DNA from: an uncultured Gammaproteobacteria bacterium
GTDB lineage: Bacteria > Patescibacteriota > Patescibacteriia > UBA9934 > CAZDDW01
Direction of reading: 5' to 3'
DNA: 64,000 nt
NCBI GenBank assembly: GCA_965231015.1
Contig: OZ246408.1
Location: 147,755 to 211,754 of the forward strand
The notes under the pieces are model-generated. The model made no database searches. It was given only the letters and a program-made list of their open reading frames with translations, and had not been told where the DNA came from. A program made the translations under genes and the position numbers. Of the stretch, positions 7,087-52,731 are shown one piece after another (the first letter of the stretch is position 1; each line of letters opens with the position of its first letter).

Positions 7087-7362
7087 TTAAGTGATGTATC
7101 CCTGATTAAGGGCGATTTTTAAGCAGGCGTCGGTTTCTGTTAGTGAGCCAAGAGCAATATTGAGAAAGCGTACGAATTCGGGTTTGGTGTTTCTGGAGCT
7201 CTCTTCAGCTAAATTAAGGTAAATTGAGATTGAAGCCCGGCGAATTTGGCTCGTTAGACCGAATTTTTCCTCGTCCGGAAAGCCTTTACTTAGGGAATAC
7301 ACTTGATTGACATAGTCTAAAATGACCTGGTTAACCCTTAGTTGTTCATATCGAAATTCCAT
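7087..7362 (-). CDS. four-helix-bundle protein of the Avd / 23S-rRNA-intervening-sequence protein family
   Basis: 91 aa. Sequence EFRYEQLRVNQVILDYV...FGLTSQIRRASISIYLNLAEE...FVRFLNIALGSLTETDACLKIALNQGY matches the four-helix-bundle family (TIGR02436/PF05635). No rRNA is present in the window. Confidence 0.7.
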   Translation of the reverse strand: MEFRYEQLRVNQVILDYVNQVYSLSKGFPDEEKFGLTSQIRRASISIYLNLAEESSRNTKPEFVRFLNIALGSLTETDACLKIALNQGYIT

Positions 7363-7375
7363 ATTTTGATTTCTT

Positions 7376-7401
7376 TTACCTCTTTCCTTTTTCCCTTTAC
7401 C
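7376..7401. repeat. pyrimidine-rich tract ttacctctttcctttttccctttacc; partner of 6982-7005
   Basis: In the minus-strand mRNA it becomes a purine-rich 5'UTR that can pair with the pyrimidine-rich 3'UTR, enclosing the ORF in a long stem. Confidence 0.6.
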
Positions 7402-7499
7402 ATCATAATATCATGAAAACGTCACTTAGTCAATGACAGGAGCTGTGGATAAGTCTGGGCTAAAATAAGCCAATTTTGAGGAATAGTGCCACTGACCCC

Positions 7500-7528
7500 T
7501 TGACAAGTTTTGTGTTTTGTGCTATACT
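7500..7528 (+). promoter_or_regulatory. sigma70-type promoter TTGACA-N17-TGcTATACT
   Basis: ccccTTGACAagttttgtgttttgtgcTATACTgg with an extended -10. It is divergent from the Avd-like gene. Confidence 0.7.
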
Positions 7529-7534
7529 GGTGTT

Positions 7535-7725
7535 AACAAGATGAGAAAAGGAAACGAAGAGCCTGGACTCATCAAGTACCTTCAAGAACAATATAGAGCG
7601 AGAGAGCCCGAGCCTGGGGTTATAAGGCATAAGTGAATGGATACATTTATAGATTGATAGATGTATACATTGACTAGACGGATTTAATTATCTCTTGCCG
7701 AGTTAGTTAGATCCGTCTTTTTTAT
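7535..7725 (+). ncRNA. small RNA module copy 1 (promoter-to-terminator, ~190 nt), unclassified
   Basis: It ends in a rho-independent terminator: gacggatttaattatctcttgccgagttagttagatccgtc followed by tttttt. It shares the motifs agagagccc(g/t)..ggg and tgtatacattga with copy 2. No conserved ORF. Confidence 0.55.
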
Positions 7726-8468
7726 AAGACAACAGTTCATTACTAGCATTTACGAATATCCGCAGTGATGACCGGCCCGGTCGGGCACGACAACCGACAG
7801 CGAGGCCATACGGAGGAGCGAGAGAGATCACCACGAATATGCGTAAGTGCATCTTACAAACCCAACTTCATGGGTTCTAACGAGTGCGCTACGCCTGGGA
7901 TCCCCAATCGGGTCGAGCCCAAGCGGAGCAGTCCTTAGAACCAGAGAGGATCAAGCGAGAGACAGAAAAACCTCTATTCGCGGGAAGTACCTTACAATTG
8001 AATACCAAATCGAAGAAGCAGGATGTAGATAAACGAACGAGAGAGATCTCTTGTCTAGGTTCTGCTTCCAGAGATCATGGATTCTAAAGTTATCCAAAAG
8101 GAAACTGTGGAGCATGACTCAATACATAACAGTGAAGTCGGGTCAGGGATTAATTACCAATCGTGATCTTATTATATAGATCGGCCTAGCGATCCGACTT
8201 CAATACTTTTTATGAATACAATTCTATTATCAACTTACATTCCTTTCATGATGGTCGTGGGAACGGTCAGTGTGGTTGGAGCGTGAGTCTTCCATAGCTC
8301 GCAAGGGAGAGAGCTTGCGAGTCTTGGAAGCCTCTGAATCAGATCCGTTATGACGGATCTGATTCAGGGAGAACGCTGCGAGGAAATGATTCTTCGCAGT
8401 GGATTAAAACGGTGCCCGTATGGGCGTTGGTGGCGTAATGCTACAACGGCCTTGAGGGGCTGCCGCAA

Positions 8469-8492
8469 AGCGTAGGGGCGAACGGCTGTTCG
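8469..8492. repeat. near-perfect 24-bp palindrome gtaggggcgaacggctgttcgccc (second copy of the 3063-3086 element)
   Basis: It differs by one base from the copy inside ORF 2904..3761. It sits about 10 bp upstream of the SD of the first GC-rich ORF. Confidence 0.8.
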
Positions 8493-8503
8493 CCCTGGAG
8501 GAG

Positions 8504-9040
8504 ATGACGATGACGACGACCACGACGAAGACAACGAAGACGACGAAGACGACGACGACGGCGCTGCCGCCGATTTCTCGACCGGCGGAGCGGCTGGAGG
8601 CCCTGCGGGGTCGTCTGATCTCGACACCCCGTGGTCCGTCCACGGGGATCGACCTCGGCCATGGCCGTCAGGTCCTGACGGAGGTCGTGTCCGTCCGACA
8701 AACGGACGGAGAGCTGGTCACCGGCCGTGATGCCCGTCACGGCCGGACCGTGCCGCTCGCGCGGCACATCGAATTCCTCCGTCGCAAGATCGCGGCGGAG
8801 AAGAAGCAGGCGGCAGCAGGCCGCCGCGGCCAGCAGGTCACTCGCCGCCGGCCGGGCAAGACCGCCCGTCGGCGGGAAGCGGCCGCCGCGGCCCGTCGCG
8901 AGGCAGAGGCCAAGGCAGAGGCCAAGGCCGCCGCGGCCCGTCGCGAGGCCGCGGAGCAGGCGGCCCGCGAGGCGGGCTGGAACTCGGCCGCGGAGCAGGC
9001 CGAGTGGGAGGTCCTCCTCACAGAAGAGCAGGCCGCCTAG
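8504..9040 (+). CDS. hypothetical protein, GC-rich island ORF 1
   Basis: Strong SD ggaggag before ATG. N-terminal Thr/Lys triplet repeat (MTMTTTTTKTTKTTKTT), Arg/Ala-rich coiled-coil-like C-terminus. GC ~68%. Confidence 0.5.
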   Translation: MTMTTTTTKTTKTTKTTTTALPPISRPAERLEALRGRLISTPRGPSTGIDLGHGRQVLTEVVSVRQTDGELVTGRDARHGRTVPLARHIEFLRRKIAAEKKQAAAGRRGQQVTRRRPGKTARRREAAAAARREAEAKAEAKAAAARREAAEQAAREAGWNSAAEQAEWEVLLTEEQAA

Positions 9041-9113
9041 CCCGCCCCCCTGATCCGTGCTTACGGGGCGATTGAAGCACGGCGGCCAAGGGACCGTTTC
9101 CCTCGCACTCGAA

Positions 9114-9150
9114 CCCCGAGCGGACGCGACGCACATCGCTTCGCTCGGGG
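9114..9150. repeat. conserved nested-hairpin motif copy 1 (ccccgagcgg-acgcgacgcacatcgc-...cgctcgggg)
   Basis: One of three near-identical ~37-nt elements, each lying 70-305 bp past the stop of a GC-rich ORF. Confidence 0.75.
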
Positions 9151-9172
9151 CCTCGATTGAGAATAGGAAATA

Positions 9173-9234
9173 GGTAAAAGGTAAAAGGATCTGAAAATCT
9201 GATTTTCTTACCTCTAACCCTTTACCCTTTCCCC
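9173..9234. repeat. hairpin built from ggtaaaaggtaaaagg / cctctaaccctttaccctttcccc tracts (same family as the tracts flanking the Avd-like gene)
   Basis: Direct reading. The central gaaaatc-t-gattttc is itself a palindrome. Confidence 0.6.
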
Positions 9235-9352
9235 TTCTGAATTGAGGCAACCGGGAAGTTTCTCTCGGTGACTCAAAGTGAAAACAAAACTCGGATTTAG
9301 CCACCCGGGTTTGAGAATGATCAGGTTGGCGACCTGAAAACGAGGAGAAAAG

Positions 9353-10372
9353 ATGTTCCAAATGACTATCAACGTTGCGGTCATGTTCTCGAAGTTCTTC
9401 AGCCCCGCCGACCGCGAGGCGGTGCTGGAGGCCATCCCGGCCGACGCCAAGAAGGTGCTGTTCGTGGACACGGGCGCCACGCCCGTGCTGGCGGACACGA
9501 TCCGCGTGCTCTTCGAGCGCGGGATCGAGGTGGTCGTCCGAGACCACCACCGTGGCGAGGGCAGGACGCCCGAGGCCGCGGAGGCGATCGAGAAGATCCT
9601 GGGCGACAACGCCCGGATCGTCTCGCGCGATGAGGCACCGGCGTGTGCCTCTCTCGTCGAGATCGCCGAGTTCGCCGAGGTCGGGACGGTCATCGTGGCC
9701 GATCCGGACCCGGACGGCCTGACCGCGGCCATGAAGGCGGCCGGCGTGACCTACGACGGCCTGGACCGCGACGCCGCGGTGCTCGACGGGCCGCGGTCCG
9801 AGCAGACCGCTGACCGGCTCTCGGATCTGGCGGTCCTGTTGACGAAGGGGATGGCGACCTTGCCCCCCTTCAACCCCAAGCGGCCGGAGGGGGGCGAGAA
9901 GGCGAAGAGCGAACACTTCGGAGAGTTTGTTGCCGCCACCCAGGGCGACGAGCAGGCCGTCGAGGCCTTGACCAAGAAGGTCGAGGTCTACGAGGTGCAG
10001 GTCTCGGAGGCCGAGCGCCTGGCCACCCGCGCCGAACAGATCCTGCCCGGCGTCTGGCTGGTCGACTGCCGCACCGGCGGCAGGTTCGACCTGGCCACGC
10101 TGGCCAAGGAGATCGAGTCCCGCCCCGGCTGCATCTGCACGGTGCAGATCAAGGGTATGGGTCCGATCGCAGCGGCCTGCGGGGGGATCCAGTACTCCTT
10201 GGCGGTGGTGAAGAGCCATCAGGCCGAGCTGGATCTCCGGAGCCTGGTCCCGGACGGCGCCGAGTCGAGCCCGGCAGCCGGACTCATCTCGAACACCTCC
10301 TTCCTCCTGCATGTGAGCCAGGAGAGGTGGATCCAGGAGATCGAGCCGGCGCTGCGCGCCCGGCTCGGCTAG
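9353..10372 (+). CDS. hypothetical protein, GC-rich island ORF 2
   Basis: SD aggagaaaag before ATG. 339 aa, GC ~67%. Contains DHH, DPDPD and EHFGEF segments. No confident family. Confidence 0.5.
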   Translation: MFQMTINVAVMFSKFFSPADREAVLEAIPADAKKVLFVDTGATPVLADTIRVLFERGIEVVVRDHHRGEGRTPEAAEAIEKILGDNARIVSRDEAPACASLVEIAEFAEVGTVIVADPDPDGLTAAMKAAGVTYDGLDRDAAVLDGPRSEQTADRLSDLAVLLTKGMATLPPFNPKRPEGGEKAKSEHFGEFVAATQGDEQAVEALTKKVEVYEVQVSEAERLATRAEQILPGVWLVDCRTGGRFDLATLAKEIESRPGCICTVQIKGMGPIAAACGGIQYSLAVVKSHQAELDLRSLVPDGAESSPAAGLISNTSFLLHVSQERWIQEIEPALRARLG

Positions 10373-10673
10373 TCCGGTTCACCTTTTCACGCGCAAGGGG
10401 TCGCGGGGAAAAGGGAAAGAAGAATGCTGCCGGTGCTGTGAAGCCGAAAGGTGGAGCTAGGCAGTAAAACCCCCCCAATCCTACAGATAGAGAGGATCTT
10501 CTATGATTGTAGGAAAACGCCACCGGTTAAGGCGTGATAATACAAATACCGGCTAATGGCCTTCGCCAAGGCTACACCGACGTATCGTGAACTTGTGGCG
10601 ACAAGTTATACGACAGTTGGTCTCTGCCAGGACCGGCCCGCAAGAGCTATATCTTGCATGCACTCGAGACATT

Positions 10674-10710
10674 CCCCGAGCGGACGCGACGCACATCGCA
10701 CCGTTCGGGG
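10674..10710. repeat. conserved nested-hairpin motif copy 2
   Basis: ccccgagcggacgcgacgcacatcgcaccgttcgggg, 302 bp after the ORF 2 stop. Confidence 0.75.
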
Positions 10711-11541
10711 ACTCGACCGAAGTCCGGAAATTTTCCGAACTTCAGTTGAGGAGAGTTAAACCAACACGCAGAGCAAACGGGCTCTGGTTAGGCCTCTTTT
10801 GGTCGCGGTTCTGTGGTGGTTCCGCGCCCCGGAGGTCTAACCGGAACCCCTTTGCCAGGGGTTGTTTATGTTTTGCTTCTAAAGTCCGTGAAATATTTCA
10901 TAGCCTTTGGAAGCGCCGTGAGGGAAATTGTTCCTTCGCGGTGTGGGGCAAGTGCTGATGCCCATTCATTCCAATTCAGCACAACTCTCATCGCCCGAAT
11001 ATCCTCTATAAGTGATAGTGTGCCTGTCATGAAATGGGGAGAATAGGGGTGATGAGATTGGAGAGCCATGAGAAAAATCATGGCCGGATGGTTGCGCAGC
11101 TCGAGCGGCATTCTTGTCGCGGGCTGTCTGCCATACGGACCGGTCCTGTGGGCGACATTGCTCACCTGTTTGGACCCCGCGTGCCGGCACCACGAGCCGG
11201 CAGCGCGGATCGTCACCCGCAAGTAGGTGATGATATCCGTAAGTCGCGATGCCCGGTGCGTTATCCGGGGAGGTCCTTTTCAGGGCCGGTGGCCGACGAG
11301 CCAAAGCGGGGCACCGCATGAAAAGCAGGGGGCGAGTCGGTTGCACACCGACCGCTCCCTTTCCACATCAGCGCGGAGACTCTAGCTCTCTTGCTGGCCG
11401 CCTTGTTTCCTAAGAGGCGTAACAGCCGCCGCTCTGATGTGGCCGCGTGAACATGCGTTCGCGCGGAAAACAGCCCCCGCCTATATCCGGAACGGGTCTG
11501 GATGAAATGGCAAGGGCAAACCGCATGAAAGGAGAAACAAC

Positions 11542-13773
11542 ATGCGGTGTTACACATGGTCCGGGGGCGAGCTCCGAGAGGGGCTCGCTCTGACCCAGGA
11601 CGATCGGCTCGGGCCGGTTGTGTTCCTGGGCGAGGCCGGGCGCGGCCGACGCTACGAAAAGGTAGCGCTCGGTCGGCGCGCTCCGGCCGAGGTGATCAAC
11701 GGGCGCGTGCTCGACGCGCACCCGGCCAAGATCACCCTGCCACCCCGGGACGGGAAGCCCGAGAAGAGCTTCTACGTCCTGGAGAAGCCGCGCCAGCACG
11801 GCGGTGACGCCGTGCTCGTGCGGGTGTACACGTACACGTCGTACATCCGCGGCGGGCGGGGATGTTGGCGGAGGATCGCCGGTGAGCCCATGACCCTGAT
11901 CTCCGGCTACGGCGCCTTCGGCGCTGCCGGCCGGGTCGGGAGCTGGGACGACGGGCTGATCGTCCTCCGCCACGGCGACGTGTTGCGCGTGTCCCCTTCG
12001 CGGGGACAGCACAGCTACGCGCTGTGGCTCGAGGCCGGCCGGCCGGTCACGGCCACCTGGCAGGACTACGAGAACCTCCAGGCGGTCGAGAAGGCCCAGC
12101 AGGTGCTCGAGCAGGCGGCGGAGACGCCCGAGGATCTCGATGTGATCTTCGGCCAGATGCGGACGTTCACGTTCGCGGGTGGCCAGATCACGGCGGGGCT
12201 AAAGGTGACGAAGGGCGCCACCGGCCCGGTCATCGCGTTCGGCGAGTCCGGACGCGGGCGTTCGCTCGTCGAGGTGCCCCTGGTCGGCCTCGACGTCACC
12301 AAGCAGAGCGACAACTACGGTCGCGAGAGCGAAGTGGTCGAGACGGCCAGCGTGGTCAAGCTCGACGAGAAGGCGGCGCCGGCGCGGTACAGCTGGGAGC
12401 AGCCCAAGGTCAATACGATCTACGGGCTCACCCAGACGGGCAAGTCGGAGGACGCCTTCCTCGTCCGCGTGTCGACCGCCGGCCCCTACACCAAGGGGAC
12501 CACCGGCACCGTCGACCCGTGGAAGGGCTCGCCCGTGGTCATCACCTCGGGCAGCGGTGCCCACGGTGACGCCGGCCGCGTCGGCGGGTGGGACGACGTC
12601 CTGCTCGTCGTGCGGGAGGGTGACGTGCTCTTCGTCCGCTCCGAAGGGGGCTACAAGAGCGCGGGTCCGTGGGCGCTGTACGTCGAGGGCGGCGAGCTCA
12701 AGGTCGAGTTCTGGCAGGAGTGGAAGCTCCGCGACGCCAAGAACGACCCCGAGTTCTACGTCGCCCAGCGCACCGCGCCGATGGGCCACACCCCCTCGGA
12801 GTGGGTCGGCCAGGTCGTGACGGTCTGCTACCTCTCGCAGGGGCAGTCCGGCTGTGGCCCGACCAAGACCTACCTCGAGGACCGCGCCACGGGCGAGCTC
12901 GTCCGGATCGGGCAGGAGTCGGTCGTCCTCAACCTCGGTTGGGACGGCAAGGACTACCACGAGTCCACCATCGGTGGTTCGTGGGTCAAGCTCGAGAAGG
13001 ACAAGCAGGTCCGGAAGCTCGACGGTGAGGAGGCGGAGAAGCGCAAGCAGATCCGCACCGAGGCCGAGGAGTTGAAGGACAAGGCCATCCTGGCCACGAA
13101 GCAGAGCCACTTCGAGCTGGCCGAGGCCACCTTGCGCCGCCAGGTGCAGGAGATCGCGCAGGAGTCAGGGTTCGACACCATGTCCACCGAGGGCTGGTAC
13201 GACTCCCTCACCTCCTGGGTCGAGAAGGCCAAGGCCGTGGTCGAGAAATGGCAGGCGACCGAGGCCGAGCTCAAGACGCTCGAGGAGCGCAAGAGCTCGG
13301 GTGAGGTGCTCGTGGACTTCGGCGGCCACTTCCGCGTGATGGGTGCCACCGGCAACGCCCAGTACTGGGTGATCATGCCGGACGGCTCCGAGCGCGACCC
13401 CGACGAGGTGGAGTACCGAAAGCGGTATACCTCGGAGGGGAGCAAAAAGTGGCGGCTGGTCGGTCCCGGGGAGCTGGCGATTTCGTGGTTCAAGGCCTAC
13501 ACGGCCGCGGACCACGAGTTTGTCGTCGACAAGCTCCCCGAGGGTGGTTGCACCGCGGAACAGCTCGTCACGGTTGAGCGCCTCGAGCGCGAGATCGACG
13601 AGCGATTCCGTGGCAGTGTCGGTTGCTCCGGGCAGTCTAGCCCGGACATCGGCCGTGGCTGGGATCTACAGCCAGCCCCCACCCCCACCGCCCCCGTGGT
13701 CGAGTCTACCGGGACGTCCGACTCTTCGGAGCCGGATCTCTCGAGTCTGCTCGGCAAGTGGGGCCGCCGCTAA
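11542..13773 (+). CDS. hypothetical protein with internal duplicated domain, GC-rich island ORF 3
   Basis: SD aaaggag before ATG. 743 aa. Two homologous segments (GYGAFGAAGRVGSWDDGLIVLRHGDVLRV and GSGAHGDAGRVGGWDDVLLVVREGDVLFV). Coiled-coil-like central region. Confidence 0.55.
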   Translation: MRCYTWSGGELREGLALTQDDRLGPVVFLGEAGRGRRYEKVALGRRAPAEVINGRVLDAHPAKITLPPRDGKPEKSFYVLEKPRQHGGDAVLVRVYTYTSYIRGGRGCWRRIAGEPMTLISGYGAFGAAGRVGSWDDGLIVLRHGDVLRVSPSRGQHSYALWLEAGRPVTATWQDYENLQAVEKAQQVLEQAAETPEDLDVIFGQMRTFTFAGGQITAGLKVTKGATGPVIAFGESGRGRSLVEVPLVGLDVTKQSDNYGRESEVVETASVVKLDEKAAPARYSWEQPKVNTIYGLTQTGKSEDAFLVRVSTAGPYTKGTTGTVDPWKGSPVVITSGSGAHGDAGRVGGWDDVLLVVREGDVLFVRSEGGYKSAGPWALYVEGGELKVEFWQEWKLRDAKNDPEFYVAQRTAPMGHTPSEWVGQVVTVCYLSQGQSGCGPTKTYLEDRATGELVRIGQESVVLNLGWDGKDYHESTIGGSWVKLEKDKQVRKLDGEEAEKRKQIRTEAEELKDKAILATKQSHFELAEATLRRQVQEIAQESGFDTMSTEGWYDSLTSWVEKAKAVVEKWQATEAELKTLEERKSSGEVLVDFGGHFRVMGATGNAQYWVIMPDGSERDPDEVEYRKRYTSEGSKKWRLVGPGELAISWFKAYTAADHEFVVDKLPEGGCTAEQLVTVERLEREIDERFRGSVGCSGQSSPDIGRGWDLQPAPTPTAPVVESTGTSDSSEPDLSSLLGKWGRR

Positions 13774-13943
13774 CCGAATCCCGTTCGGGCCCATGACGGC
13801 TCGGACGGGAACTATTCTTTCGGCCGAAAACTAAGAAGAGTAATGCCGTAAACTATGCTCTTCTGCGGACTATTCGTCCGTCCGCGCAAGCGGTAACAGA
13901 ATCGGCACTCCCCGGGCCGCCGCAAGGCCCGGTGCACATACAT

Positions 13944-13981
13944 CCCCGAGCGGTTGCGATTGCACATCGCGCCGCTCGGGG
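13944..13981. repeat. conserved nested-hairpin motif copy 3
   Basis: ccccgagcggttgcgattgcacatcgcgccgctcgggg, 170 bp after the ORF 3 stop. The loop shows coupled ac-to-tt and ac-to-at substitutions relative to copies 1 and 2. Confidence 0.75.
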
Positions 13982-14031
13982 CCTTAACTAAGATTGGGAA
14001 GTGATTCACAATCTTTAATAGGAGGTGAGAC

Positions 14032-14421
14032 TTGATCAGATTAACTCTGACGAGCGGACCGTACGCGGAACGCTCACGAAGCTTCTCGGACAAGATCGCG
14101 GATGACGGATCCGTTGTTGACGCGAACGAGCTTCTTGGATCTCTCGTCAACCACGGCTGGTCCTGGGAGATAGATCTTTCTTCTGCTAGCGCGGAAGAAT
14201 CCTTCATCTGGGGACGAGCCGACATGGTCGCGCGCATTGTTCGGGCGGTCATGGAGCGAAGACCGGTCTGGGTTTTGACCCGCCGGTTCGAGCCCATCGG
14301 TGATCCGTCCACGATCGTGGGAATGATCGAGGACGAGATCGTCGAAAGCGGGCGACTTGTTTACGTGGCTTCGGATGACGAACGAGGTGTTGTCATCGGG
14401 GCGCACGGGTACGAGGAATGA
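14032..14421 (+). CDS. hypothetical protein, GC-rich island ORF 4 (TTG start)
   Basis: SD aggagg 6 nt before a TTG start codon. 129 aa. Followed by the hairpin cccaacgttc...acgttggg at 14436-14472. Confidence 0.4.
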   Translation: MIRLTLTSGPYAERSRSFSDKIADDGSVVDANELLGSLVNHGWSWEIDLSSASAEESFIWGRADMVARIVRAVMERRPVWVLTRRFEPIGDPSTIVGMIEDEIVESGRLVYVASDDERGVVIGAHGYEE

Positions 14422-14579
14422 CCCGCCTTAACTCGCCCAACGTTCTTGAGGAGGATGAACGTTGGGCAAATCCACAAGTTCAGCAAATCAAATATCTGGC
14501 GGATGAGCCCTGAGCTCTCTCGCCAGGAGGAATTTGTCATTTGTTTGGCTCTGCTGGACTTGTGGATTTGAGCTTAATT

Positions 14580-14632
14580 TAGCCTAAATATCTTTGTCAG
14601 GTCTTGACAAACTTAAAAAAATATGGTATAGT
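14580..14632 (+). promoter_or_regulatory. promoter of the tagcctaaa...TCTTGACAAA-N17-TGgTATAGT family
   Basis: tagcctaaatatctttgtcaggtcTTGACAaacttaaaaaaatatggTATAGT. The upstream half matches the repeats flanking the DGR at 45365 and 48405. Confidence 0.7.
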
Positions 14633-14638
14633 GTGAGC

Positions 14639-14801
14639 GTTACAATCAAAGAGTTGAGAGAGCCCTGGTCCAGGGAAAAGGACAAATGCAAGAAACGGTA
14701 AATGTATACATGTATAAATTGATACATTGATACATTGATACATCTGTTCTTGCGAAACCGGATTTGGTTACCTCTCACGAGTTAATTAAATCCGGTTTTT
14801 T
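14639..14801 (+). ncRNA. small RNA module copy 2 (~160 nt), unclassified
   Basis: Terminator aaaccggattt...aaatccggtt plus ttttt. Contains gagagagccctggtccaggg and three tandem gatacatt units plus tgtatacat. Confidence 0.55.
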
Positions 14802-15770
14802 CATAAGCACAGATCTGAGGAGGAGAGCTCTGACACTAAACTTGAGGAGGGAGGTGTCGGGTGGTATTCAAGTGATTAATCCCGGTTTAACCCGTTCGAC
14901 GGGTTTTAGCTGGCACTATTCACACGCACGAATACCTGGTGGATATACCAACTGCTTGCAGTAGGTCAAGGTCCACATGCCCCTCAGTTCTGTGCTTGGG
15001 AAACCTAGCACCCTATGGCGTGGCCTTATGCTAGTAGTCTAGTAAGGTAAAATAAGTCGGGTGGAAGTCCCGGCCACGCCTGCAAAAATTCCGCCCAGTC
15101 AACAGACCGGGCGTGAAGATATATAAACAAATTTCAGAAAGGAGAAGATTGAAGTACTGAAAGGGTTGCAGGTTAACCCGCCCAAAAAACCTGATCGGGA
15201 TTTGGGACATGGTCGAGCCCGGATTCTAGACGCAAGACCAAAGGGACTATGAAGACGCCCTGCCAATCGAGCCCGTTACGTCATGGGCTGGCAAAAAGTA
15301 TCTTCGTCAAATTTTACAACCGGTGAATCAGGAGGAAGAAATCCGCTAGAGGATCAATCCGTTTGGCAAATCAATCAGATGGTTGAGTTGTGCCAAGAGA
15401 GGATCGGTGAATGCAGAAGGATTGAAGGTCGCTCGGGGGCTTGTTGCTAAGCTACCCGCCCGGGCGATAGTAAAAAACAACCTCGTTAATTCGAGGGTCA
15501 GGGTAGTCGGCGGAGCATGAGGTACTTGTGCTGGAACGTTAGGAACGCCTAAGGATAAAACCGGTGGCTAGTACGAAGCAAACCCAGCATAAAGGCCGTG
15601 CCGAAATTCCGGTACCCGTCGTCAGGTTCGCACCCAAACATGTCGGGCGTCACCTGCCCGTTAAATCCGTCTAGCCAACGGAAGTGGTGAGCCAAGGGGA
15701 AGCAGATCCCCCAGTGAGATTACTTTGGCCCGTGCAACACAAGCACTAACGTGTTGCACGGGCCTTTTCC
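14802..15770 (+). ncRNA. ORF-free ~0.95 kb region with extensive hairpins ending in a terminator-like perfect 12-bp stem (15729-15762) plus ccttttcc; candidate large structured RNA, family not identified
   Basis: No ORF of 60 aa or more on either strand between 14965 and 15890, in an otherwise tightly packed genome. The terminal stem is cccgtgcaacac/gtgttgcacggg. Confidence 0.3.
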
Positions 15771-15890
15771 TAAGAGCTTGATACAATTGAATCGAGCGTT
15801 TGGGTGAACATTCACACATGGGTATCACTTAAATGGTTAAAACAAAAAACCCCACAAAGTGAGAGTTTGTTCTCCATAATAAGAATTTTA

Positions 15891-16199
15891 TCAACTCTGC
15901 GGAAACGGTTCGAGTTCTAAGATTCGCCGAGCGTCATCCTCAGTAATCACAGAACGTTCGACCAGGATTTCAAGAGTGGCAGCTAATTTACGATCTTCCT
16001 TGCGAACCAATACTACAAGATCACCACGTAAGTCAGAGAGTTTTTCATCCAAGTAGTCCTTAGTGACCATAGTTGACTCAACCTTGTTTAGTCTTGATTC
16101 AACACCATCAAAACGATCGTCAACATGAGTTGAGAAATCGTTAATGGCCTCTAAAATTTCATTTTTTACAGCATCTTCCATACAAAGATAAAATATCAT
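15891..16199 (-). CDS. hypothetical protein (host-like GC)
   Basis: 102-aa ORF. Low confidence. Confidence 0.4.
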   Translation of the reverse strand: MIFYLCMEDAVKNEILEAINDFSTHVDDRFDGVESRLNKVESTMVTKDYLDEKLSDLRGDLVVLVRKEDRKLAATLEILVERSVITEDDARRILELEPFPQS

Positions 16200-16225
16200 G
16201 GTTCATTGATTTCGACAAGAAATCA

Positions 16226-16340
16226 CCCCATCTAAGTTCTCCAGCCTTTGCCAAGGCTTCGGCCGGCAAGTGGCGAGCTTGAGACCTTGGACGGAGGAAT
16301 GATCCTTCAAAGATTCAACCCACAGTGGAGTAATTCCGCA
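16226..16340. repeat. 115-bp perfect direct repeat, left copy
   Basis: accccatctaagttctccagcctttgccaaggcttcggccggcaagtggcgagcttgagaccttggacggaggaatgatccttcaaagattcaacccacagtggagtaattccgc. It is identical to 17243-17357. Confidence 0.9.
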
Positions 16341-17188
16341 TGGAGCGGAACAGAAACACTGGAGTCGTGATGAAGAATGCCATGATGAAGAATGCCATGA
16401 TGATCTTGACCGTTACAGTATTCACCTTCTGCCTCGGCTGCCTGGACTACGATCTGGTATCCGTCGAGGATGTCGGCGACGAGCACGACCTGGATCAGGT
16501 CGATCCGTCCGACGACGACCCCGATATTGGCGAGCCCCATGCTGTACCCAACGGCGACGAGTACGATTTGCCCGAGGGTGACGATGACACGATCAATCCC
16601 GAGGTCATGTGCGGCATGTACATTGATGACGGGTACTTCGGTACCCCCAACGCCGTCTATGTCGAGAGTCAGCCCATCTGGGGACGTTTGAGCCCGGACG
16701 TGGTCGAGATCAGTCAGGGTGACACGGTGGAGTTGAGCTACGTGATCTTGAACACTCCGTGCGCCGACATCGAGGTCAACTCCATGTTCATCGGAGTATA
16801 CGACTGGTCCAATCCCGAATGGCTCTGGGACCTGTTCGAAGCCTCGATCAGTATGGAGCTCGAGGAGACCTCGACAGGTGACCAGTTCACCCCACACGTC
16901 CCGGTTAACATGTTCGTGACCCCCACCGGCGACCAGCTTCACTATATCTGGAATAGTGATAACGGTCCCTACACCAACTGGGGATCCACACACATGGATG
17001 ATCTGGTCTTCACTCCCGGACAGGCCGAGGTGTTCACCTTCATCTTCACGGCCACAGAGTTCGCGCCAATCGGTAGTGAGTTTGAGATCAGTCTGACCGA
17101 ACTCACTTGGACCGACGTCACCACTGGGCACGACATCATGTCCTACCCATTCTGGGACGTGGCGACAACGGTTCGCGTTGTCGACTAG
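16340..17188 (+). CDS. hypothetical acidic secreted/lipoprotein-like protein (GC-rich)
   Basis: 282 aa. N-terminal hydrophobic segment ILTVTVFTFCLGC, then a highly acidic region. A 15-bp tandem duplication (atgaagaatgccatg x2) sits at the 5' end. The SD lies inside the direct repeat. Confidence 0.55.
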   Translation: MERNRNTGVVMKNAMMKNAMMILTVTVFTFCLGCLDYDLVSVEDVGDEHDLDQVDPSDDDPDIGEPHAVPNGDEYDLPEGDDDTINPEVMCGMYIDDGYFGTPNAVYVESQPIWGRLSPDVVEISQGDTVELSYVILNTPCADIEVNSMFIGVYDWSNPEWLWDLFEASISMELEETSTGDQFTPHVPVNMFVTPTGDQLHYIWNSDNGPYTNWGSTHMDDLVFTPGQAEVFTFIFTATEFAPIGSEFEISLTELTWTDVTTGHDIMSYPFWDVATTVRVVD

Positions 17189-17242
17189 CTCACCACAACA
17201 CCGACATTCCGTCGGTCCCGCCCTCTGTCACTTCTCGACATC

Positions 17243-17357
17243 AGGGCACCCCATCTAAGTTCTCCAGCCTTTGCCAAGGCTTCGGCCGGCAAGTGGCGAG
17301 CTTGAGACCTTGGACGGAGGAATGATCCTTCAAAGATTCAACCCACAGTGGAGTAAT
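17243..17357. repeat. 115-bp perfect direct repeat, right copy
   Basis: Identical to 16226-16340. Followed by the hairpin gttccgga...tccggaac. Confidence 0.9.
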
Positions 17358-17530
17358 TCCGCGCGGCACATCCGTTCCGGAGTCACTCGATTCCGGAACA
17401 TCCAAAAACACAGCAATTTGACGAAAAATCTTACGCTCTCTCGCAAGATCTTTCGCCTGAATCTGCTGTGTTTTTGTTTGAGTAAACGCGGCCAAAATGT
17501 TACACTTAGAGCATTAAATAAGCTTATTTT

Positions 17531-19372
17531 ATGTGCGGAATAGTCGGATATATCGGAAAAAAGGAGGTTTTGCCAATTTTGGTGGATGGCTTAAAGCGTC
17601 TTGAATATCGTGGATACGACTCAGCTGGAGTAGCTGTAATTTCTGGTGAAACTCTTCAGGTTGTGAAGGCTCCAGGAAAAATTGTGGAACTCGAAGGAAA
17701 ACTCGAAGGATCAAGTATAAAGGACAAAGGACAAAGGATCGGAATCGCTCATACTCGTTGGGCCACTCATGGTCCGCCGACCGAAGATAATGCTCATCCG
17801 CATACGGACTGTTCGGGTAAACTGGCACTCGTACACAATGGAATTGTAGAAAACTATCAAGAACTAAAAACAGAACTTGAAGCGGATGGTCATAAATTTA
17901 AATCCGAAACCGACACCGAGGTGTTGGTTCATTTGGTTGAAAAACATCTTAAAGATTGTAAGGATTTATCAGAAGCTGTCCGGGAAACTGTAAAAGAAGT
18001 TCGAGGCACGTACGGTCTGGCTGCGGTTTCAGCTGGCGCGCCAGAAGAAATTGTGGTTGCCCGAATGGGCTCACCGATAGTGATCGGACTTGGCAAGGAC
18101 GATTTTTTTGTTGCCTCAGATGCCTCGGCCATCATCAACCACACTCGAAACGTAATTTTTTTGGATGATGGAGAGATGTGTGTTTTGCGTCCTGACGGAT
18201 ACGAAATTAAAACTTTAAGTAACCTGCCAGTGGCTAAGGATCCGGAAGAACTAGAGTGGTCATCCGAAGACGTTCAAAAAAATGGCCAGCCACATTTTAT
18301 GAAAAAGGAGATGTTGGAGCAGCCGGAAGTAATCTTGAATTCAACTCGTGGTCGACTGAAACCGAAAGACGGTAAGGCTATCCTTGGTGGATTGTGCGAT
18401 ATTGCCGAACGTTTGCGTGAGCTTGATCGCATCATCATTGTTGGCTGTGGGAGCGCGTATTATGCAGGATTGGTTGGCGAATATATGCTTGAAGAATATG
18501 CAGGAATTCCGGTTGAAGTCGAGCACGCTTCAGAGTTTCGTTACCGCAAAGCCATTATCGATCGTCACACCGCAGTGCTGGCAATTTCTCAATCAGGTGA
18601 AACAGCGGACACGCTCGCGGCCATTCGGGAGGCCAAAGAAAAAGGTGCACTCACTCTCGGAATCGTGAACACAGTTGGTTCAACCATTGCCCGCGATACA
18701 GACGCCGGAGTTTACAACCATGCCGGTCCAGAAATCGGGGTGGCTTCTACTAAAGCGTTCTTGTCTCAAGTCACGGTACTCGCTTTGATGGGTTTGTTCC
18801 TTGGTCGACAACGGGATCTTAGCATGGTCATGGGTAAACGCATTGCGGACGAAATCAATTTGCTACCGGATAAGTTACAATCAATTTTGGACCAGTTCGA
18901 TTTGATAGTTCAGCTCGCAGAGAAATACAAAGATGCCCGCGATTTCATGTACTTGGGTCGTAAATATTTGAACCCAATCGCTCTTGAGGGGGCTCTCAAA
19001 CTCAAAGAAATTAGTTATATCCATGCTGAGGGTTATGCGGCCGGGGAGATGAAGCACGGACCAATTGCTTTAATCGATCCAGAGTTTCCAGTATTCGTGT
19101 TGGCTCCGAAAGATTCCGTGTATGAAAAGACCATCTCAAACTTGGAAGAGATCAAAGCTCGTGGCGGCAAAATCATTGCTCTTACTACCGAAGGCAATGA
19201 AGAGATTCGAAAGTTGGTTGACGATGTAATCTTTATTCCCAAAACTCTGGAAATGCTAACGCCAATCCTGGCTGTAGTACCGCTTCAGATTTTTGCTTAC
19301 GGTGTGGCAACGGCCAAGGGTTATGATCCAGACAAGCCGCGCAACCTGGCTAAGTCAGTTACCGTCGAATAA
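17531..19372 (+). CDS. glmS: glutamine--fructose-6-phosphate aminotransferase
   Basis: Starts MCGIVGY (N-terminal Cys nucleophile). Two SIS domains. 613 aa. Confidence 0.95.
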   Translation: MCGIVGYIGKKEVLPILVDGLKRLEYRGYDSAGVAVISGETLQVVKAPGKIVELEGKLEGSSIKDKGQRIGIAHTRWATHGPPTEDNAHPHTDCSGKLALVHNGIVENYQELKTELEADGHKFKSETDTEVLVHLVEKHLKDCKDLSEAVRETVKEVRGTYGLAAVSAGAPEEIVVARMGSPIVIGLGKDDFFVASDASAIINHTRNVIFLDDGEMCVLRPDGYEIKTLSNLPVAKDPEELEWSSEDVQKNGQPHFMKKEMLEQPEVILNSTRGRLKPKDGKAILGGLCDIAERLRELDRIIIVGCGSAYYAGLVGEYMLEEYAGIPVEVEHASEFRYRKAIIDRHTAVLAISQSGETADTLAAIREAKEKGALTLGIVNTVGSTIARDTDAGVYNHAGPEIGVASTKAFLSQVTVLALMGLFLGRQRDLSMVMGKRIADEINLLPDKLQSILDQFDLIVQLAEKYKDARDFMYLGRKYLNPIALEGALKLKEISYIHAEGYAAGEMKHGPIALIDPEFPVFVLAPKDSVYEKTISNLEEIKARGGKIIALTTEGNEEIRKLVDDVIFIPKTLEMLTPILAVVPLQIFAYGVATAKGYDPDKPRNLAKSVTVE

Positions 19373-22226: not shown

Positions 22227-22553
22227 ATGAGTCAGGGGGAAAAGGGTTATTTGCATGTGGCTGATCTCGGTGACATGACCTGCTTTGTCATTCCCATGGG
22301 GAGCAGGTGGCTCGAAGTTGCCAACTTCGGACGTCATGGAATCGAGGTGGCCAATCTGACGCACCCGGTGATGAACTGCAGGGTCACACCGGCTGAAGAT
22401 GAAGATCTGCTCCAGCTGCTAGAAAAGCTGGCGATTATCGACAAGAATCTTCCCGAAGCCTGGGCGGCAAGTCTCGGGCGAACAAGCGAGTTCGCCGAGG
22501 CCGAGCGACTCAACCGCATCTTGGCCGAGTTCTTGCAACACGGCCCCTTCTGA
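22227..22553 (+). CDS. hypothetical small protein
   Basis: Own promoter TTGACAggctggtttttttgtttTATCTT and SD. Followed by the bidirectional terminator at 22562-22606. Confidence 0.45.
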   Translation: MSQGEKGYLHVADLGDMTCFVIPMGSRWLEVANFGRHGIEVANLTHPVMNCRVTPAEDEDLLQLLEKLAIIDKNLPEAWAASLGRTSEFAEAERLNRILAEFLQHGPF

Positions 22554-37184: not shown

Positions 37185-37398
37185 AAAAAAGAATAATTAA
37201 TGTGAATTATGTTGAGTCATATTCTCGAAAGTTCGAGAATCAATCCGTGGCCCACGAGTCCGAACTCGTAAAACATGGATTGATTCTGGCTGGCCTGCCA
37301 GCCGTAGATCCAGCTATATTTTATCTTTGGTCCTCCTTCGCCAAGGCTTCGGAAGACAACCTCCGCTCCACCAGCAAATACCTTGCTGGAGCGAAGGT

Positions 37399-37485
37399 TG
37401 GTGCCGCGAGTGGGACTCGAACCCACACGAGATTGCTCCCACTACGACCTGAACGTAGGGCGTCTGCCAATTCCGCCACCGCGGC
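37399..37485 (-). tRNA. tRNA-Leu (anticodon CAG)
   Basis: Reverse complement GCCGCGGTGGCGGAATTGGCAGACGCCCTACGTTCAGGTCGTAGTGGGAGCAATCTCGTGTGGGTTCGAGTCCCACTCGCGGCACCA. Long variable arm. CCA encoded. Confidence 0.85.
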
Positions 37486-45364: not shown

Positions 45365-45413
45365 GCCTAAAATTAGGTCAAATCTTGACAAAGACACAAA
45401 ATGGTGCTATATT
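45365..45413 (+). promoter_or_regulatory. promoter-bearing repeat A (gcctaaaattaggtcaaatcTTGACAaag-N-TGcTATATT), left boundary of the DGR cassette
   Basis: A near-identical ~40-bp copy lies at 48405-48445, immediately after the RT stop. Confidence 0.75.
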
Positions 45414-45558
45414 TTGACCTTGATCATTCAAATTTCAAGGTTAAAATTTATATGAGATAAGTATTTTGTCTGGCTCGTTTGAGCTATGTAGAATACTTGT
45501 CTCATGTTAGAGACCGGTCGTTTATCCGAACGAGTCGGATGGTTGGCCAAAAAAGGAG

Positions 45559-46470
45559 ATGATGATGACGACGGAAACGTTGATCACGTCACGGGATCCC
45601 AAGGGCAGACAGTGCTTCAGTGTGCTCGAGGCCGTCTATGACAAGGCGGAGCTCAACCCCGAGGAAGCACAGCACATCAACGAACAGGGCTATGAACTCA
45701 AGCGCGAGTTTCAGAAACTGATCGCCCGTTTGCGTGTCCGTCAGGATTACGCCAACGAGCAGGTGATCTCGAGCTACACCTACCCGAACGAGTACGCGGG
45801 CCCGCAGCCTATCGCCGAGCAGGTGGACATTCTGGCCGAGTTGTTCGGCCTGTCGCTCGGAGCAACGGTTGAGTACATTGAGAAGGTGCTACCCTCGCTC
45901 GAGCTTCCCAAGGGAGCCGAGGGGTGGTTCGCCATCCCGAGTGTCGGCGCTCTCGCTGCCCGTCACTTCCCCAAGGTCACCGATCCGGCCGAGCAGTACT
46001 GCCGCGCGGTCGAGCTGGTGCTCAAGAAGATCAGTCACTCGCGGAAGTTCTACAACTACCGCCAGGGGCAGATCAATCCGAACCAGCTGCGCCAGTATGC
46101 TAGCAGTATGGCCATGATGGAGCAGACCGTCAAGAACCAGCCAGGCGACATCATGATCATCCCGGCCCAGTTCGGTCTGCGTCACCGAGGATGCAGTGTC
46201 CGTCGAGCCCGAGCTATTTTCACCAAGAACGAATTCGGCCTCGGAGCGCTCGCTGTTGGTTCAATGCTCCTCACTCATCCCAAGCGCCTTGTCCGTTGGG
46301 AACAGCTCCACGTGGACTGCACGGGTGATGAATTTGCTCCGGTTGCTGGTGGCCAGTTCGTGCACGCGCCGTTCTTCGACTGGCTCGGCGGCGGAGTCGG
46401 GTTCTACTCCGGCCGCCTCGACAACGCGCGCGTGTACTATGGTTCGGCCTCCGGGTTTCTCCCGCAGTAG
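45559..46470 (+). CDS. DGR target (variable) protein; cytoplasmic-type N-terminus, C-terminal variable region
   Basis: SD aaggag. 303 aa. GC-rich relative to its surroundings. The last ~43 codons form the VR, which matches the TR at all positions except those where the TR carries an adenine. Confidence 0.8.
   Translation: MMMTTETLITSRDPKGRQCFSVLEAVYDKAELNPEEAQHINEQGYELKREFQKLIARLRVRQDYANEQVISSYTYPNEYAGPQPIAEQVDILAELFGLSLGATVEYIEKVLPSLELPKGAEGWFAIPSVGALAARHFPKVTDPAEQYCRAVELVLKKISHSRKFYNYRQGQINPNQLRQYASSMAMMEQTVKNQPGDIMIIPAQFGLRHRGCSVRRARAIFTKNEFGLGALAVGSMLLTHPKRLVRWEQLHVDCTGDEFAPVAGGQFVHAPFFDWLGGGVGFYSGRLDNARVYYGSASGFLPQ
46338..46468 (+). repeat. DGR variable repeat (VR)
   Basis: 131 bp aligned to the TR at 46849-46979 without gaps. 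There are 23 mismatches, and every one sits at a TR adenine. Confidence 0.85.
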
Positions 46471-46528
46471 TTGAACCTTGTTCTTTGAGGACTTGAATCT
46501 TTTGAGCCCTTGAAGCTTTTCGTTAAAG

Positions 46529-46584
46529 CCCCGCCCGCGGCGGGGCGAACCTGTCGGCTATCCACAATACGCGTGGGTAGCCGA
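46529..46584 (+). promoter_or_regulatory. two GC-rich hairpins downstream of the VR (gccccgcc-cgcg-gcggggc; cggctatccac...gtgggtagccg); candidate target-gene terminator and/or DGR homing-associated stem-loop
   Basis: Inverted repeats read directly from the sequence, 60-115 bp past the VR. Confidence 0.45.
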
Positions 46585-46603
46585 CTGTTAATTTTGCTAT
46601 AAT
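46575..46603 (+). promoter_or_regulatory. extended -10 promoter (tgcTATAAT) upstream of the TR
   Basis: ccgactgttaattttgcTATAATg. Weak -35. Confidence 0.45.
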
Positions 46604-46848
46604 GTTCGCGAGTAAGGCTAATGAACAGTAGTTCAAGGATTACTGTCGCCAAGCTCTCTCTTCAAAGAGAACAACAGCCAGAATCTTGACGGTTACGGCT
46701 TTCAAGAGCGTGCTGTCTTGAGGGGATACTGCTTGTTTCTGTCTGGTGGAGATGTTTTGTAAACATAACAAAACTGCTCCCAAATAAAATACAGGAAAGA
46801 GAAAATGGATTTTCAATTTTCAGTGACCAGGATGGACAGAAACAATAA

Positions 46849-46979
46849 TCCGGATGCTGGTGGCCAGTTCGTGAACGCACCGAACTTCAACTGGAACGAC
46901 GGCAAAGTCAAGTTCAACACCGACAACCTCGACAACGCGAACGTGAACTATGGTTCGACCTCCGGGTTTCTCCCGAAGT
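46849..46979 (+). repeat. DGR template repeat (TR)
   Basis: Adenine-rich. The AAC codons in TR correspond to the variable codons in VR. The track ORF 46805..47041 is the TR read in the VR frame, not a gene. Confidence 0.85.
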
Positions 46980-46995
46980 CACTCCTCAATAACAA

Positions 46996-47022
46996 AAGAC
47001 GTCCTGTAACGGACGCCTTTTG
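46996..47022. terminator. bidirectional hairpin terminator between TR and avd
   Basis: aaaagacgtcctgtaacggacgccttttg. Confidence 0.6.
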
Positions 47023-47027
47023 TATTA

Positions 47028-47378: not shown

Positions 47379-47387
47379 ATAATAAGT

Positions 47388-52612: not shown

Positions 52613-52731
52613 CCCTACGCTTCATTAAGAAAATTGGTTTTGAAGTGGAGGATGTCCTCCGAAGCCCCGAAGGAACAAAGGGGGATCTCGGGAGTAAGTT
52701 ATGAAGCTTCGGATGGTAAACCATACATTAT

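Follow-up and report, generated by a model that had tools for sequence, protein, structure and literature searches.

The locus upstream of glmS in this genome raises the question of how a single GC-rich gene came to lie between two identical copies of a long direct repeat. In the 64,000 nucleotides analyzed (hereafter the window), we identified an exact direct repeat of 116 bp, named R, at positions 16224-16339 (R-left) and 17247-17362 (R-right), both on the forward strand and offset by 1023. Since the match is exact over 116 nt, this pair cannot be due to chance. The initial annotation had reported an identity over 115 bp; the identity stands, and the coordinates given were off by 2 nt for the left copy and by 4-5 nt for the right one. 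It had also proposed a search for further copies, and blastn detected only these two, with no third one in the 64-kb window. R folds weakly (z -1.95) and has no Rfam 15 match at the gathering score. Sub-threshold matches are at chance level only, such as PK-repZ at 17325-17383, which overlaps the 3′ end of R-right (18 bits for a cutoff of 44 bits, E = 0.58). Likewise, Rfam searches of the window, of 15600-17700, of 7300-8500 and of 14400-15950 gave nothing relevant to R or to the ORF-free regions. Two sub-strings of R have no match in viral contigs and a 24-mer has none in JGI metagenomes, and a 20-mer searched against GTDB genomes retrieved a ubiquitous hairpin motif only, not R. A 46-nt extended match in Peribacteria (L065) lies inside the coding region of fmt and is probably due in part to chance.

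The two copies of R enclose an insert of 907 bp (16340-17246, forward strand) that is unique to this genome, the relatives holding other genes at this site. Its GC content is 0.56, compared to 0.39 for the left flank. Its sole ORF (16340-17188, forward strand; GC 0.56, and GC3 0.76 compared to about 0.40 for the neighbouring genes) encodes an acidic lipoprotein with a lipobox cysteine, a pI of 4.05 and 53 D+E residues versus 6 K+R residues; the gene had initially been described as GC-rich, with a lipobox-like segment and an acidic body. The proposal that R supplies the SD and the start of this gene is not supported, since the family of homologues aligns to the methionine at 16370, which is preceded by a separate GGAG within the insert (16361). 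The start at 16340 is therefore uncertain, and the true one is probably 16370 according to this alignment. The exact 15-bp tandem duplication noticed at the beginning of the gene (ATGAAGAATGCCATG x2) is located at 16370-16399 (forward strand), within the signal peptide, where it encodes MKNAM twice. The lipoprotein has no match in Pfam, PHROG or PADLOC and belongs to a small family (36 representatives at E ≤ 1e-3, all lipoprotein-like). Its AlphaFold model (pLDDT 81) displays a beta-sandwich at residues 93-281, for which a fold search gave weak Ig-like or CARDB-like matches and nothing stronger. In four metagenome loci, the homologues are again GC-rich single genes in flanks of lower GC content. 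A repeat search found no inverted repeats at the ends of the insert; a DNA transposon or an insertion sequence was rejected on the grounds that the element has neither transposase nor terminal inverted repeats and that the duplication measures 116 bp.

Five relatives were informative for this locus, the closest being L086 (92% identity of glmS with this genome, compared to 87% for L085). The left border is a conserved divergent gene encoding a small coiled-coil protein (15891-16199, reverse strand) of 96-102 aa, the 96-aa form being the one called in Logan contigs; the N-terminus of its orthologue in L085 (1047-1457) is 80% identical. The right border is a conserved twin-hairpin spacer (forward strand, fold z = -7.0) made of a strong hairpin, H (17374-17399), and of a long, terminator-like hairpin, T (17403-17476). 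It precedes the conserved anchor glmS (17531-19372, forward strand), which has Pfam GATase_6/7 and SIS domains and for which homologues were found. R-right is an extra leader copy without any gene behind it, followed by these hairpins and then by the glmS region, as initially observed. H and T are orthologous in L085, L086 and L087, with compensatory changes in the stem of L086, and all four of the nearest relatives have a conserved hairpin and terminator 3′ of their variable gene. Between these borders, the gene content differs: the lipoprotein gene here, a GC-rich gene (325 aa, 66% GC) behind a single-copy leader in L085 and another ORF in L086, without any similarity to one another. Such different genes between conserved flanks bear out the initial suggestion of the recent gain of a single-gene module of about 1 kb, and the R-gene-R structure most likely reflects a gene acquired recently at a hotspot of cassette-like character, an assembly error being unlikely.

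The first ~100 nt of R are orthologous to the single-copy leader of L085 (~1482-1560), which adjoins the divergent gene: 24 of 25 nt match across the left border, and a further block of 47 nt is about 85% identical. The end of R-right and hairpin H also align to L085, with a score that none of 500 shuffles reached. From this comparison, R, in its left copy, is the resident leader of the locus and not imported DNA, at odds with its initial description as the flank of a module. Two candidate sigma70-like promoters (16130-16157 and 16165-16194, forward strand) point into R; the number of these matches does not exceed shuffle expectation. A comparison with relatives, which had been recommended in the search for an empty site, showed that neither L085 nor L086 has a second copy of R in the interval from the upstream gene to the hairpin. 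Among these relatives, none had a truly empty site: the two copies of R are identical in this genome, the leader is single in L085 and the site there is occupied by another gene. In L086, about 60 nt separate the end of the upstream gene from the hairpin, and the contig ends before the position of the resident leader.

R carries a 28-nt GC hairpin mini-insertion (16242-16269, with its second copy at 17265-17292; forward strand) that is missing from the leader of L085 and whose core 20-mer is found exactly in 78 loci from many phyla. A 13-mer had been reported to recur next to a tRNA-Leu gene; this recurrence is real, at 37340-37352 and not at 37337-37349. Since the 13-mer is part of a hairpin motif of about 30 nt present in many phyla, it is uninformative on integration and no longer serves as a hint of an integration site. 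R and the tRNA-Leu trailer have a stretch of 18 nt in common and nothing more. A tRNA-targeting integrative element was therefore rejected, the stretch in common being only 18 nt long and part of a widespread motif, and no integrase having been detected in the ORFs tested. A literature search found no paper on the 13-mer.

Two identical copies around one insert could also reflect an assembly artefact or a mixed population, with one R on the chromosome and the insert existing as a circle, as a multimer or in another strain. We consider this very unlikely. Independent reads, taken as Logan contigs (k = 31) of SRR7048225 and SRR7048221, for which a literature search found no paper, are 100% identical to the window, and at every junction they stop exactly 30 nt into R: the left contig at 16253, the insert contig at 16310 and at 17276, and the right contigs at 17333. 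The four junctions (left flank to R, R to insert, insert to R and R to right flank) therefore all exist in the reads of these two sets, a check of read support that the initial annotation had called for. Furthermore, R is specific to this CPR lineage and is joined to both ends of the insert in the two samples; the insert is therefore linked to sequence of this organism on both sides. The source contig is 1.0 Mb long, and GC-rich island DNA is elsewhere contiguous with host genes on an independent contig of 25 kb. However, in both samples the short-read graphs are interrupted at R, so that the k = 31 data cannot order the pieces: the junctions fit left flank-R-insert-R-right flank, and equally an empty site accompanied by a 1023-bp circle, or two or more units in tandem. 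An assembler would thread the sole Eulerian path through a 116-bp repeat. The left contig of SRR7048221 also ends at 16214, a hint of strain variation or of low coverage.

The reading that we favour, and to which we give about an even chance, takes R as the native leader of a slot that varies between strains and lies directly upstream of glmS in this Patescibacteria (CPR) lineage, and attributes the second copy of R to a recent insertion-duplication by single crossover. R would combine an imperfect hairpin with a 5′ untranslated stretch; the left boundary of the slot would be formed by R and the small divergent gene, and the right one by the conserved hairpin and terminator. Its cargo in relatives would be GC-rich, promoterless and of unknown function, from one gene to more than a dozen with twin-hairpin spacers; in this genome, it would be one acidic beta-sandwich lipoprotein gene with a leader on both sides. 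Donor DNA made of the gene and a copy of the leader would have recombined with the resident leader by a Campbell-type single crossover, and recombination between the two copies of R would excise the gene again as a 1023-bp circle. Insertion-duplication is known from plasmid integration and from mutagenesis in transformable bacteria, where the insert lies between two identical direct copies of the target and the event is reversible. The identical direct copies of R resemble this outcome, whereas the donor circle, its origin and its uptake route are hypothetical here. We infer that the event was a gain and not a loss, that it followed this recombination route and that the circle can form.

The duplication could also have a purely local history without any incoming circle: either a two-unit array lost its second gene, which is equally simple, or a tandem of R plus gene lost one of its genes. 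Tandem segmental duplications do occur in the arrays of the relative L093 (pairs of 146 nt at 77% and of 18 nt, exact, at a distance of 864-865 nt), and the array of L092 also ends in a spacer copy with no gene behind. In addition, the stretch just before H that aligns to L085 extends over the final 5-6 nt of R-right (TCCGC), which would fit the joint of a microhomology deletion. However, the copies of R do not differ at any of their 116 bp, on both sides the similarity ends abruptly in unrelated sequence, and the second gene would have left no trace. As for remnants of homology beside the repeat, the 3′ UTR of the gene does not resemble the region of the R end and hairpin significantly (90/500 shuffles) and resembles the 3′ UTR of L085 only marginally (13/500 shuffles). 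We regard this local history as rather unlikely.

It is highly improbable that R is a long target-site duplication, i.e., that the gene was pasted into a staggered break of about 116 nt whose fill-in doubled the leader. The capture of foreign DNA or RNA, for example reverse-transcriptase-primed or by end-joining, could act in this way: the copies of R abut the insert exactly, the window codes for a reverse transcriptase, the block of a diversity-generating retroelement (DGR) in the window also lies between 45-nt direct repeats of a promoter region, and a 17-nt exact repeat is found on both sides of the small divergent gene in L085. Yet this only reverse transcriptase is of DGR type, with its gene split over two frames, and terminal inverted repeats and a transposase are missing. 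The lengths of these repeats (17, 45 and 116 nt) vary widely, as expected for homology-driven events. We know of no bacterial mechanism that generates 116-bp duplications, which also counts against this explanation. Since direct repeats of about 120-130 nt near a GC-rich surface-type gene recall the template and variable repeats of DGRs, R was considered as such a pair; this was rejected because the copies are identical and non-coding, with no adenine-specific differences. The window does contain a true DGR, at 45.5-48.4 kb, in which 23 of 23 differences are at template adenines.

Our analysis also revealed multi-gene arrays upstream of glmS in more distant relatives, with from two to at least 13 same-strand, Pfam-less genes that are GC-richer and separated by twin-hairpin spacers (fold z -6.8 to -12.6 for such spacers overall). 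L092 carries at least two GC-rich genes, one of them between direct repeats of the spacer of 74 nt (91%) and 21 nt (90%). L093 and L094 have 13 or more Pfam-less genes on the same strand, with a GC content of 0.48-0.59 (0.52-0.59 for all but one), compared to 0.39-0.45 for the host DNA, and their spacers are repeated, including a 41-nt exact pair. A further contig has eight same-strand, Pfam-less, GC-rich genes. Promoter-like matches in the arrays are weak (9/12) and no commoner than in shuffles, and CPR promoters may differ from the consensus. The duplicated unit is R here and a twin-hairpin spacer in L092; since R is weakly folded and not a twin hairpin, it is unlike the unit of L092. The window itself contains a second GC-rich island (8441-14421, forward strand) of same-strand orphan genes without any Pfam match, with spacers at 9115-9248, 10673-10750 and 13944-14022 (fold z -6.8 to -8.1) and a 58-nt repeat family, D6; it lies with host genes on the single 25-kb Logan contig mentioned above. 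R scored lower against 8200-8520 than against random tiles of the window, and the idea of one leader common to both islands was therefore rejected. A second variable slot after FemAB (22.1-22.6 kb) was also rejected, as it lacks flanking repeats and has no clean empty site in L085. The same applies to cargo common to different arrays, tblastx having given only low-complexity Ala/Lys/Glu matches. Searches of the cargo genes against Pfam, PHROGs and PADLOC yielded one L092 match to a PHROG of unknown function and a faint RecJ/DHH signal, and were otherwise uninformative. Given this PHROG match, the arrays of L092 and L093 could be phage-derived remnants that arose by another process than R-gene-R.

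Same-strand ORFs without detectable promoters or known function, structured repeats, one fixed site and a content that varies between relatives are also features of integron arrays and of CALINs (attC clusters without an integrase). They could suggest an integron-like, site-specific cassette system in which R or the spacers would be the sites of a tyrosine or other recombinase encoded elsewhere and the gene a mobile cassette. A complete integron requires an IntI tyrosine recombinase next to the array, which a CALIN does not, and attC sites are imperfect palindromes whose R″ (RYYYAAC) and R′ (GTTRRRY) cores lie 50-140 nt from each other. However, no integrase, recombinase or transposase domain was detected in the ORFs tested from the 64-kb window or in the Pfam hits of the Logan calls, and a crude regular expression retrieved no RYYYAAC...GTTRRRY pair on either strand of 8000-17600 (about one being expected in shuffles). 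Moreover, insertion by an integron leaves no duplication of an entire 116-bp site, attC sites are merely similar whereas the copies of R are identical, and a full identical duplication of a leader is not a product of attI x attC recombination. We consider such a system quite unlikely; a literature search found no paper on integron-like arrays in Patescibacteria.

For the favoured insertion-duplication, the best functional analogue of R-gene-R is the promoter-early stem-loop (PeSL) cassette, and the route would be comparable to the shuffling of orphan genes by repeated regulatory cassettes in T4-type phages. PeSLs of T4-type phages are short, repeated regulatory modules with stem-loops that lie on both sides of orphan genes in hyperplastic regions, which vary among close relatives; through homologous recombination between modules, genes are gained, lost or exchanged, and mini-circles can be set free (Arbiol et al. 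2010, PMC2839356; Comeau et al. 2014, PMC4122927). As with PeSLs, motifs occur here at indel or replacement points around orphan genes (the window compared to L085 and L086, and L092). Phage PeSLs combine a strong sigma70 promoter with a terminator stem-loop; in the present arrays, the twin hairpins are very stable and the promoter-like matches are weak and at chance level. The setting also differs, being a bacterial chromosome in which circles are hypothetical and R is a leader and not a terminator stem-loop. More tentatively, and with a rather low probability, the whole may represent a non-integron gene-capture platform at a fixed chromosomal site upstream of glmS in this CPR lineage, acting through an unlinked recombinase or through homology-based capture, the latter using DNA that the cells take up from GC-rich neighbours. 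Orphan genes that are GC-rich and promoterless, for surface and small membrane proteins, would be stacked between twin-hairpin spacers, and each entry would leave a duplicated leader or spacer as its footprint. In SAR11, which has a streamlined genome, Wilhelm et al. reportedly described hypervariable regions at fixed positions in 2007; they are similar in that conserved flanks bracket strain-specific genes in a small, otherwise syntenic genome. To our knowledge, neither repeated twin-hairpin spacers nor a duplicated leader have been reported in SAR11.

CPR bacteria are ultra-small, their genomes are tiny and they rely on other cells. Their acquisition of surface and accessory genes through islands and individual transfers has been reported, without any mechanism (PMC12455944). 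The locus analyzed here provides a defined and comparable site for gene gain and loss, with conserved borders and a cargo that differs from one relative to another, and the perfect 116-bp duplication is a fresh footprint in this genome. The GC content of the cargo consistently exceeds that of the host, also in unrelated genomes carrying homologues of the lipoprotein, and points to an external gene pool that these genomes have in common. Should the repeat-mediated route prove real, excised circles are predicted, and single foreign genes would land behind host expression signals while leaving the essential glmS undisturbed.

The exact direct repeat R is real, as the initial annotation had reported, but measures 116 bp rather than 115 bp and lies a few bases away from the positions first given, mostly in its right-hand copy. 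The two copies (R-left, 16224-16339; R-right, 17247-17362) are offset by 1023 bp and enclose a 907-bp insert with a single ORF (16340-17188), in which the 15-bp exact tandem duplication already noticed was found at 16370-16399. No third copy was detected by blastn in the 64-kb window. R has no match in Rfam and folds modestly (z = -1.95). R-right is followed by a tight hairpin (17374-17399), a long terminator-like hairpin (17403-17476; z = -7.0 for both taken together) and glmS (from 17531). The lipoprotein gene of the insert and its neighbours are carried by a 1,002,985-bp contig of the NCBI genome and were also found in the Logan assemblies of two runs. The window is 100% identical to the Logan contigs (k = 31), which break exactly 30 nt into R on either side: the left contig extends to 16253, the insert contig, recorded in two samples, covers 16310-17276 and the right contigs start at 17333. 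Since these contigs stop inside R, all four junction types exist in the reads, which fits either a chromosomal flank-R-insert-R-flank arrangement or an empty site accompanied by a circle of 1023 bp, at any copy number. Whichever arrangement holds, the insert is linked at both ends to the organism's own DNA, since R is lineage-specific. An artefact of assembly or of the population is a very unlikely source of R.

Relatives were traced by their glmS homologues and their contigs compared with the window. L085 (glmS 87% identical) shares the divergent small gene, after which comes a single copy of a leader that can be aligned with R (24/25 nt at the left border and ~85% over a 47-nt block around CGGAGGAATGATCCTTCAA), 28 nt of R (16242-16269) having no counterpart. 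This leader precedes another gene (325 aa, 66% GC), which resembles nothing in the window and passes directly into the same hairpin and terminator as those found 3′ of R-right. The ORF that ends before the hairpin in L086 (glmS 92% identical) is a third one, unrelated to the others; the hairpin stem there displays compensatory changes. In L087 (80%) the hairpin and terminator are located at the contig end. No second leader copy precedes the hairpin in L085 or L086. Given the single-copy leader, the differing genes and the common hairpins of these relatives, R-left is the leader native to the locus and R-right an additional copy, specific to this genome; between leader and hairpin lies a slot whose content differs in every relative. 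The perfect identity of the R copies, and the fact that L085 and L086 have no second copy ahead of the hairpin, argue for a recent event. Recent gain of a gene thus remains the best view of what had been described as a very recent duplication or insertion of a ~1-kb single-gene module, except that R itself is the resident leader.

More distant relatives carry arrays at this locus. In L092 (glmS 77%), glmS is preceded by two or more GC-rich genes on the same strand; on both sides of the second, the spacer recurs as direct repeats (74 nt, 91% identical; 21 nt, 90% identical). L093 and L094 (glmS 75%) harbour at least 13 same-strand genes without Pfam match, with a GC content of 0.48-0.59 (0.52-0.59 for all except one) versus 0.39-0.45 for host DNA, interspersed with spacers of a repeated family, among them a pair identical over 41 nt and separated by 2.5 kb. 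Eight GC-rich same-strand genes without Pfam match were also found, by gene listing alone, on a 128-kb JGI contig (glmS 77%). All spacers fold into two adjoining strong hairpins (z = -6.8 to -12.6). The window itself contains a 6-kb GC-rich island (8441-14421; 55-73% GC versus ~44% for the genome) of four same-strand orphan genes (178, 339, 743 and 129 aa; GC3 of 0.91 for the 743-aa one), each followed by a twin-hairpin spacer of the same kind as in the relatives' arrays, and one independent 25-kb contig carries this island (8.4-14.4 kb) together with host genes. A purely local history, in which a two-unit array lost one gene or a tandem duplication was partly deleted, is a possible but rather unlikely origin of the structure. 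Promoter-like matches within the arrays are weak (9/12 to a sigma70-like consensus, from which promoters of these bacteria may differ) and no commoner than after shuffling of the sequence; in the stretches scanned, strong matches were limited to 7500 (+) and 14604 (+), plus one of 10/12 at 7433-7405 (-).

Other features were observed nearby. The island is closely preceded by an Avd-like 23S_rRNA_IVP gene (7087-7362) and a TrmB regulator. Two paralogous units (7500-7722 and 14604-14800), one upstream of each GC-rich island, each consist of a near-consensus promoter, an sRNA-like stretch of ~190 nt and a terminator whose stem differs between them through compensatory changes, and each contain a tiny ORF (MDTFID and MYTCIN, respectively) and GATACATT-type repeats. 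The ~1 kb that follows the second (14800-15890), like 7722-8440, has no ORF larger than 66 aa and no match in Rfam; its blocks are 82-95% identical to L085, 14998-15093 (95%) being more conserved than neighbouring coding DNA, and the stretch may encode a large non-coding RNA. The gap after the FemAB gene holds a further GC-rich orphan gene (22227-22553; 108 aa, GC 0.56), which has a promoter-like site of its own and no flanking repeats. Since relatives carry other small genes or none there, this gap is a second variable slot.

R fits none of the mobile-element families tested. No integrase, recombinase or transposase domain was found in the ORFs tested across the 64-kb window or in precomputed Pfam matches, and a motif scan of both strands of 8000-17600 revealed no integron attC core pair. 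A site-specific system with an unlinked recombinase is improbable. The only mobile-element enzyme among the tested ORFs is the reverse transcriptase (47283-48404) of a complete diversity-generating retroelement (DGR; 45365-48449), split across two frames near a G-run by either a sequencing error or pseudogenization. Its GC-rich target gene (45559-46470) contains the variable repeat (46338-46468), which differs from the template repeat (46849-46979) at 23 positions, all at template adenines. R was rejected as such a pair, its copies lacking adenine-specific differences. A staggered break that produced a long target-site duplication, perhaps with the help of a reverse transcriptase, is highly improbable.

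We favour, at about even confidence, an insertion-duplication by recombination on a repeated regulatory module, because of the perfect leader duplication around a foreign-looking gene, the relative-dependent content of the slot, the ~90% identical spacer copies of L092 and the absence of any recombinase or attC signature. A donor molecule would have carried the gene and a copy of the leader; a single crossover with the resident leader would have inserted the gene and doubled the leader, and the reverse reaction would release a circle. The PeSL motifs of T4-type phages similarly shuffle orphan genes by recombination on repeated modules and form mini-circles (PMC2839356), but the modules found here have no detectable promoter. 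In L085, the small divergent coiled-coil gene lies between two direct, exact copies of a 17-nt leader segment (GACCTGATGCGGAGGAA; 986-1002 and 1513-1529), which suggests that this gene was likewise inserted into an older leader. The DGR block is also bracketed by a 45-nt direct repeat with a promoter-like site (45365-45409 and 48405-48449, 87% identical). Taken together, both cases suggest that short regulatory segments were duplicated repeatedly alongside insertions in these genomes; neither favours one route over another.

A 13-mer shared by R and the 3′ flank of tRNA-Leu had been offered as a tentative hint of an integration site, with chance as an alternative. It reflects a widespread hairpin mini-insert and not an attachment site, since the motif occurs in many phyla and contexts and is patchily present in close relatives. 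A genome-wide scan with the 20-mer GCCAAGGCTTCGGCCGGCAA retrieved 78 loci (L007-L084) from many phyla, all outside the source genome, with similarity to R limited to ~30 nt apart from a lone 46-nt match inside a Peribacteria fmt gene (L065). This GC hairpin motif, (C)CAGCCTTCGCCAAGGCTTCGGCCGGCAAGC, extended 5′ by CCTTC-like bases in 45 of the 78 loci, is near-identical across phyla and occurs in the window at 16242-16269, 17265-17292, 37335-37359 and ~52640-52666. It is found in intergenic DNA, immediately 3′ of tRNA ends, in frame in proteins (such as that of fmt) and within an apparent RNase P RNA gene (L030), 3′ of a GGGAGGAAAGTCCG motif. It is present in R and not in the L085 leader, while a variant lies in the L085 non-coding region and not in that of the window, so that it behaves like a mini-insertion. 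We know of no description of this motif. The trailers of tRNA-Leu(CAG) (37399-37485) and of a tRNA-Ile with a UAU anticodon (52538-52612), uncommon in bacteria, resemble each other and carry variants of it.

The cargo ORF has a GC content of 0.56 and a GC3 of 0.76, compared to a GC3 of ~0.40 for neighbouring genes. Its strongly acidic product (pI 4.05) has no match in Pfam, PHROG or PADLOC, nor any relative by word-indexed search; an exhaustive HMMER search retrieved 36 representatives of a small family at E ≤ 1e-3, 21 of them at E ≤ 1e-10. Nearly all of the 25 aligned homologues (~230-285 aa) display a signal peptide and a lipobox cysteine, followed by an acidic linker and a ~170-aa conserved domain with two conserved cysteines. 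Their start aligns with the Met at 16370, preceded by its own GGAG at 16361, so the idea that R supplies the Shine-Dalgarno and start context is doubtful. In the AlphaFold model, residues 93-281 form a confidently predicted beta-sandwich (mean pLDDT 81), with weak Ig-like, CARDB-like and PapD-like Foldseek matches in the PDB (TM 0.3-0.5), and the protein may be read as a surface beta-sandwich lipoprotein with no assigned function. At all four metagenome loci carrying relatives of this gene, the gene (GC 0.57-0.64) has sharp borders with its flanks (roughly 0.34-0.53).

Overall, the R-gene-R structure is best interpreted as the trace of a recently gained gene, the site being a cassette-like hotspot located 5′ of glmS in a lineage of Patescibacteria. 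Of greater interest than the repeat itself is this hotspot, where GC-rich orphan genes occur with twin-hairpin spacers; its nearest known kinds are integron-like arrays and PeSL-type shuffling.
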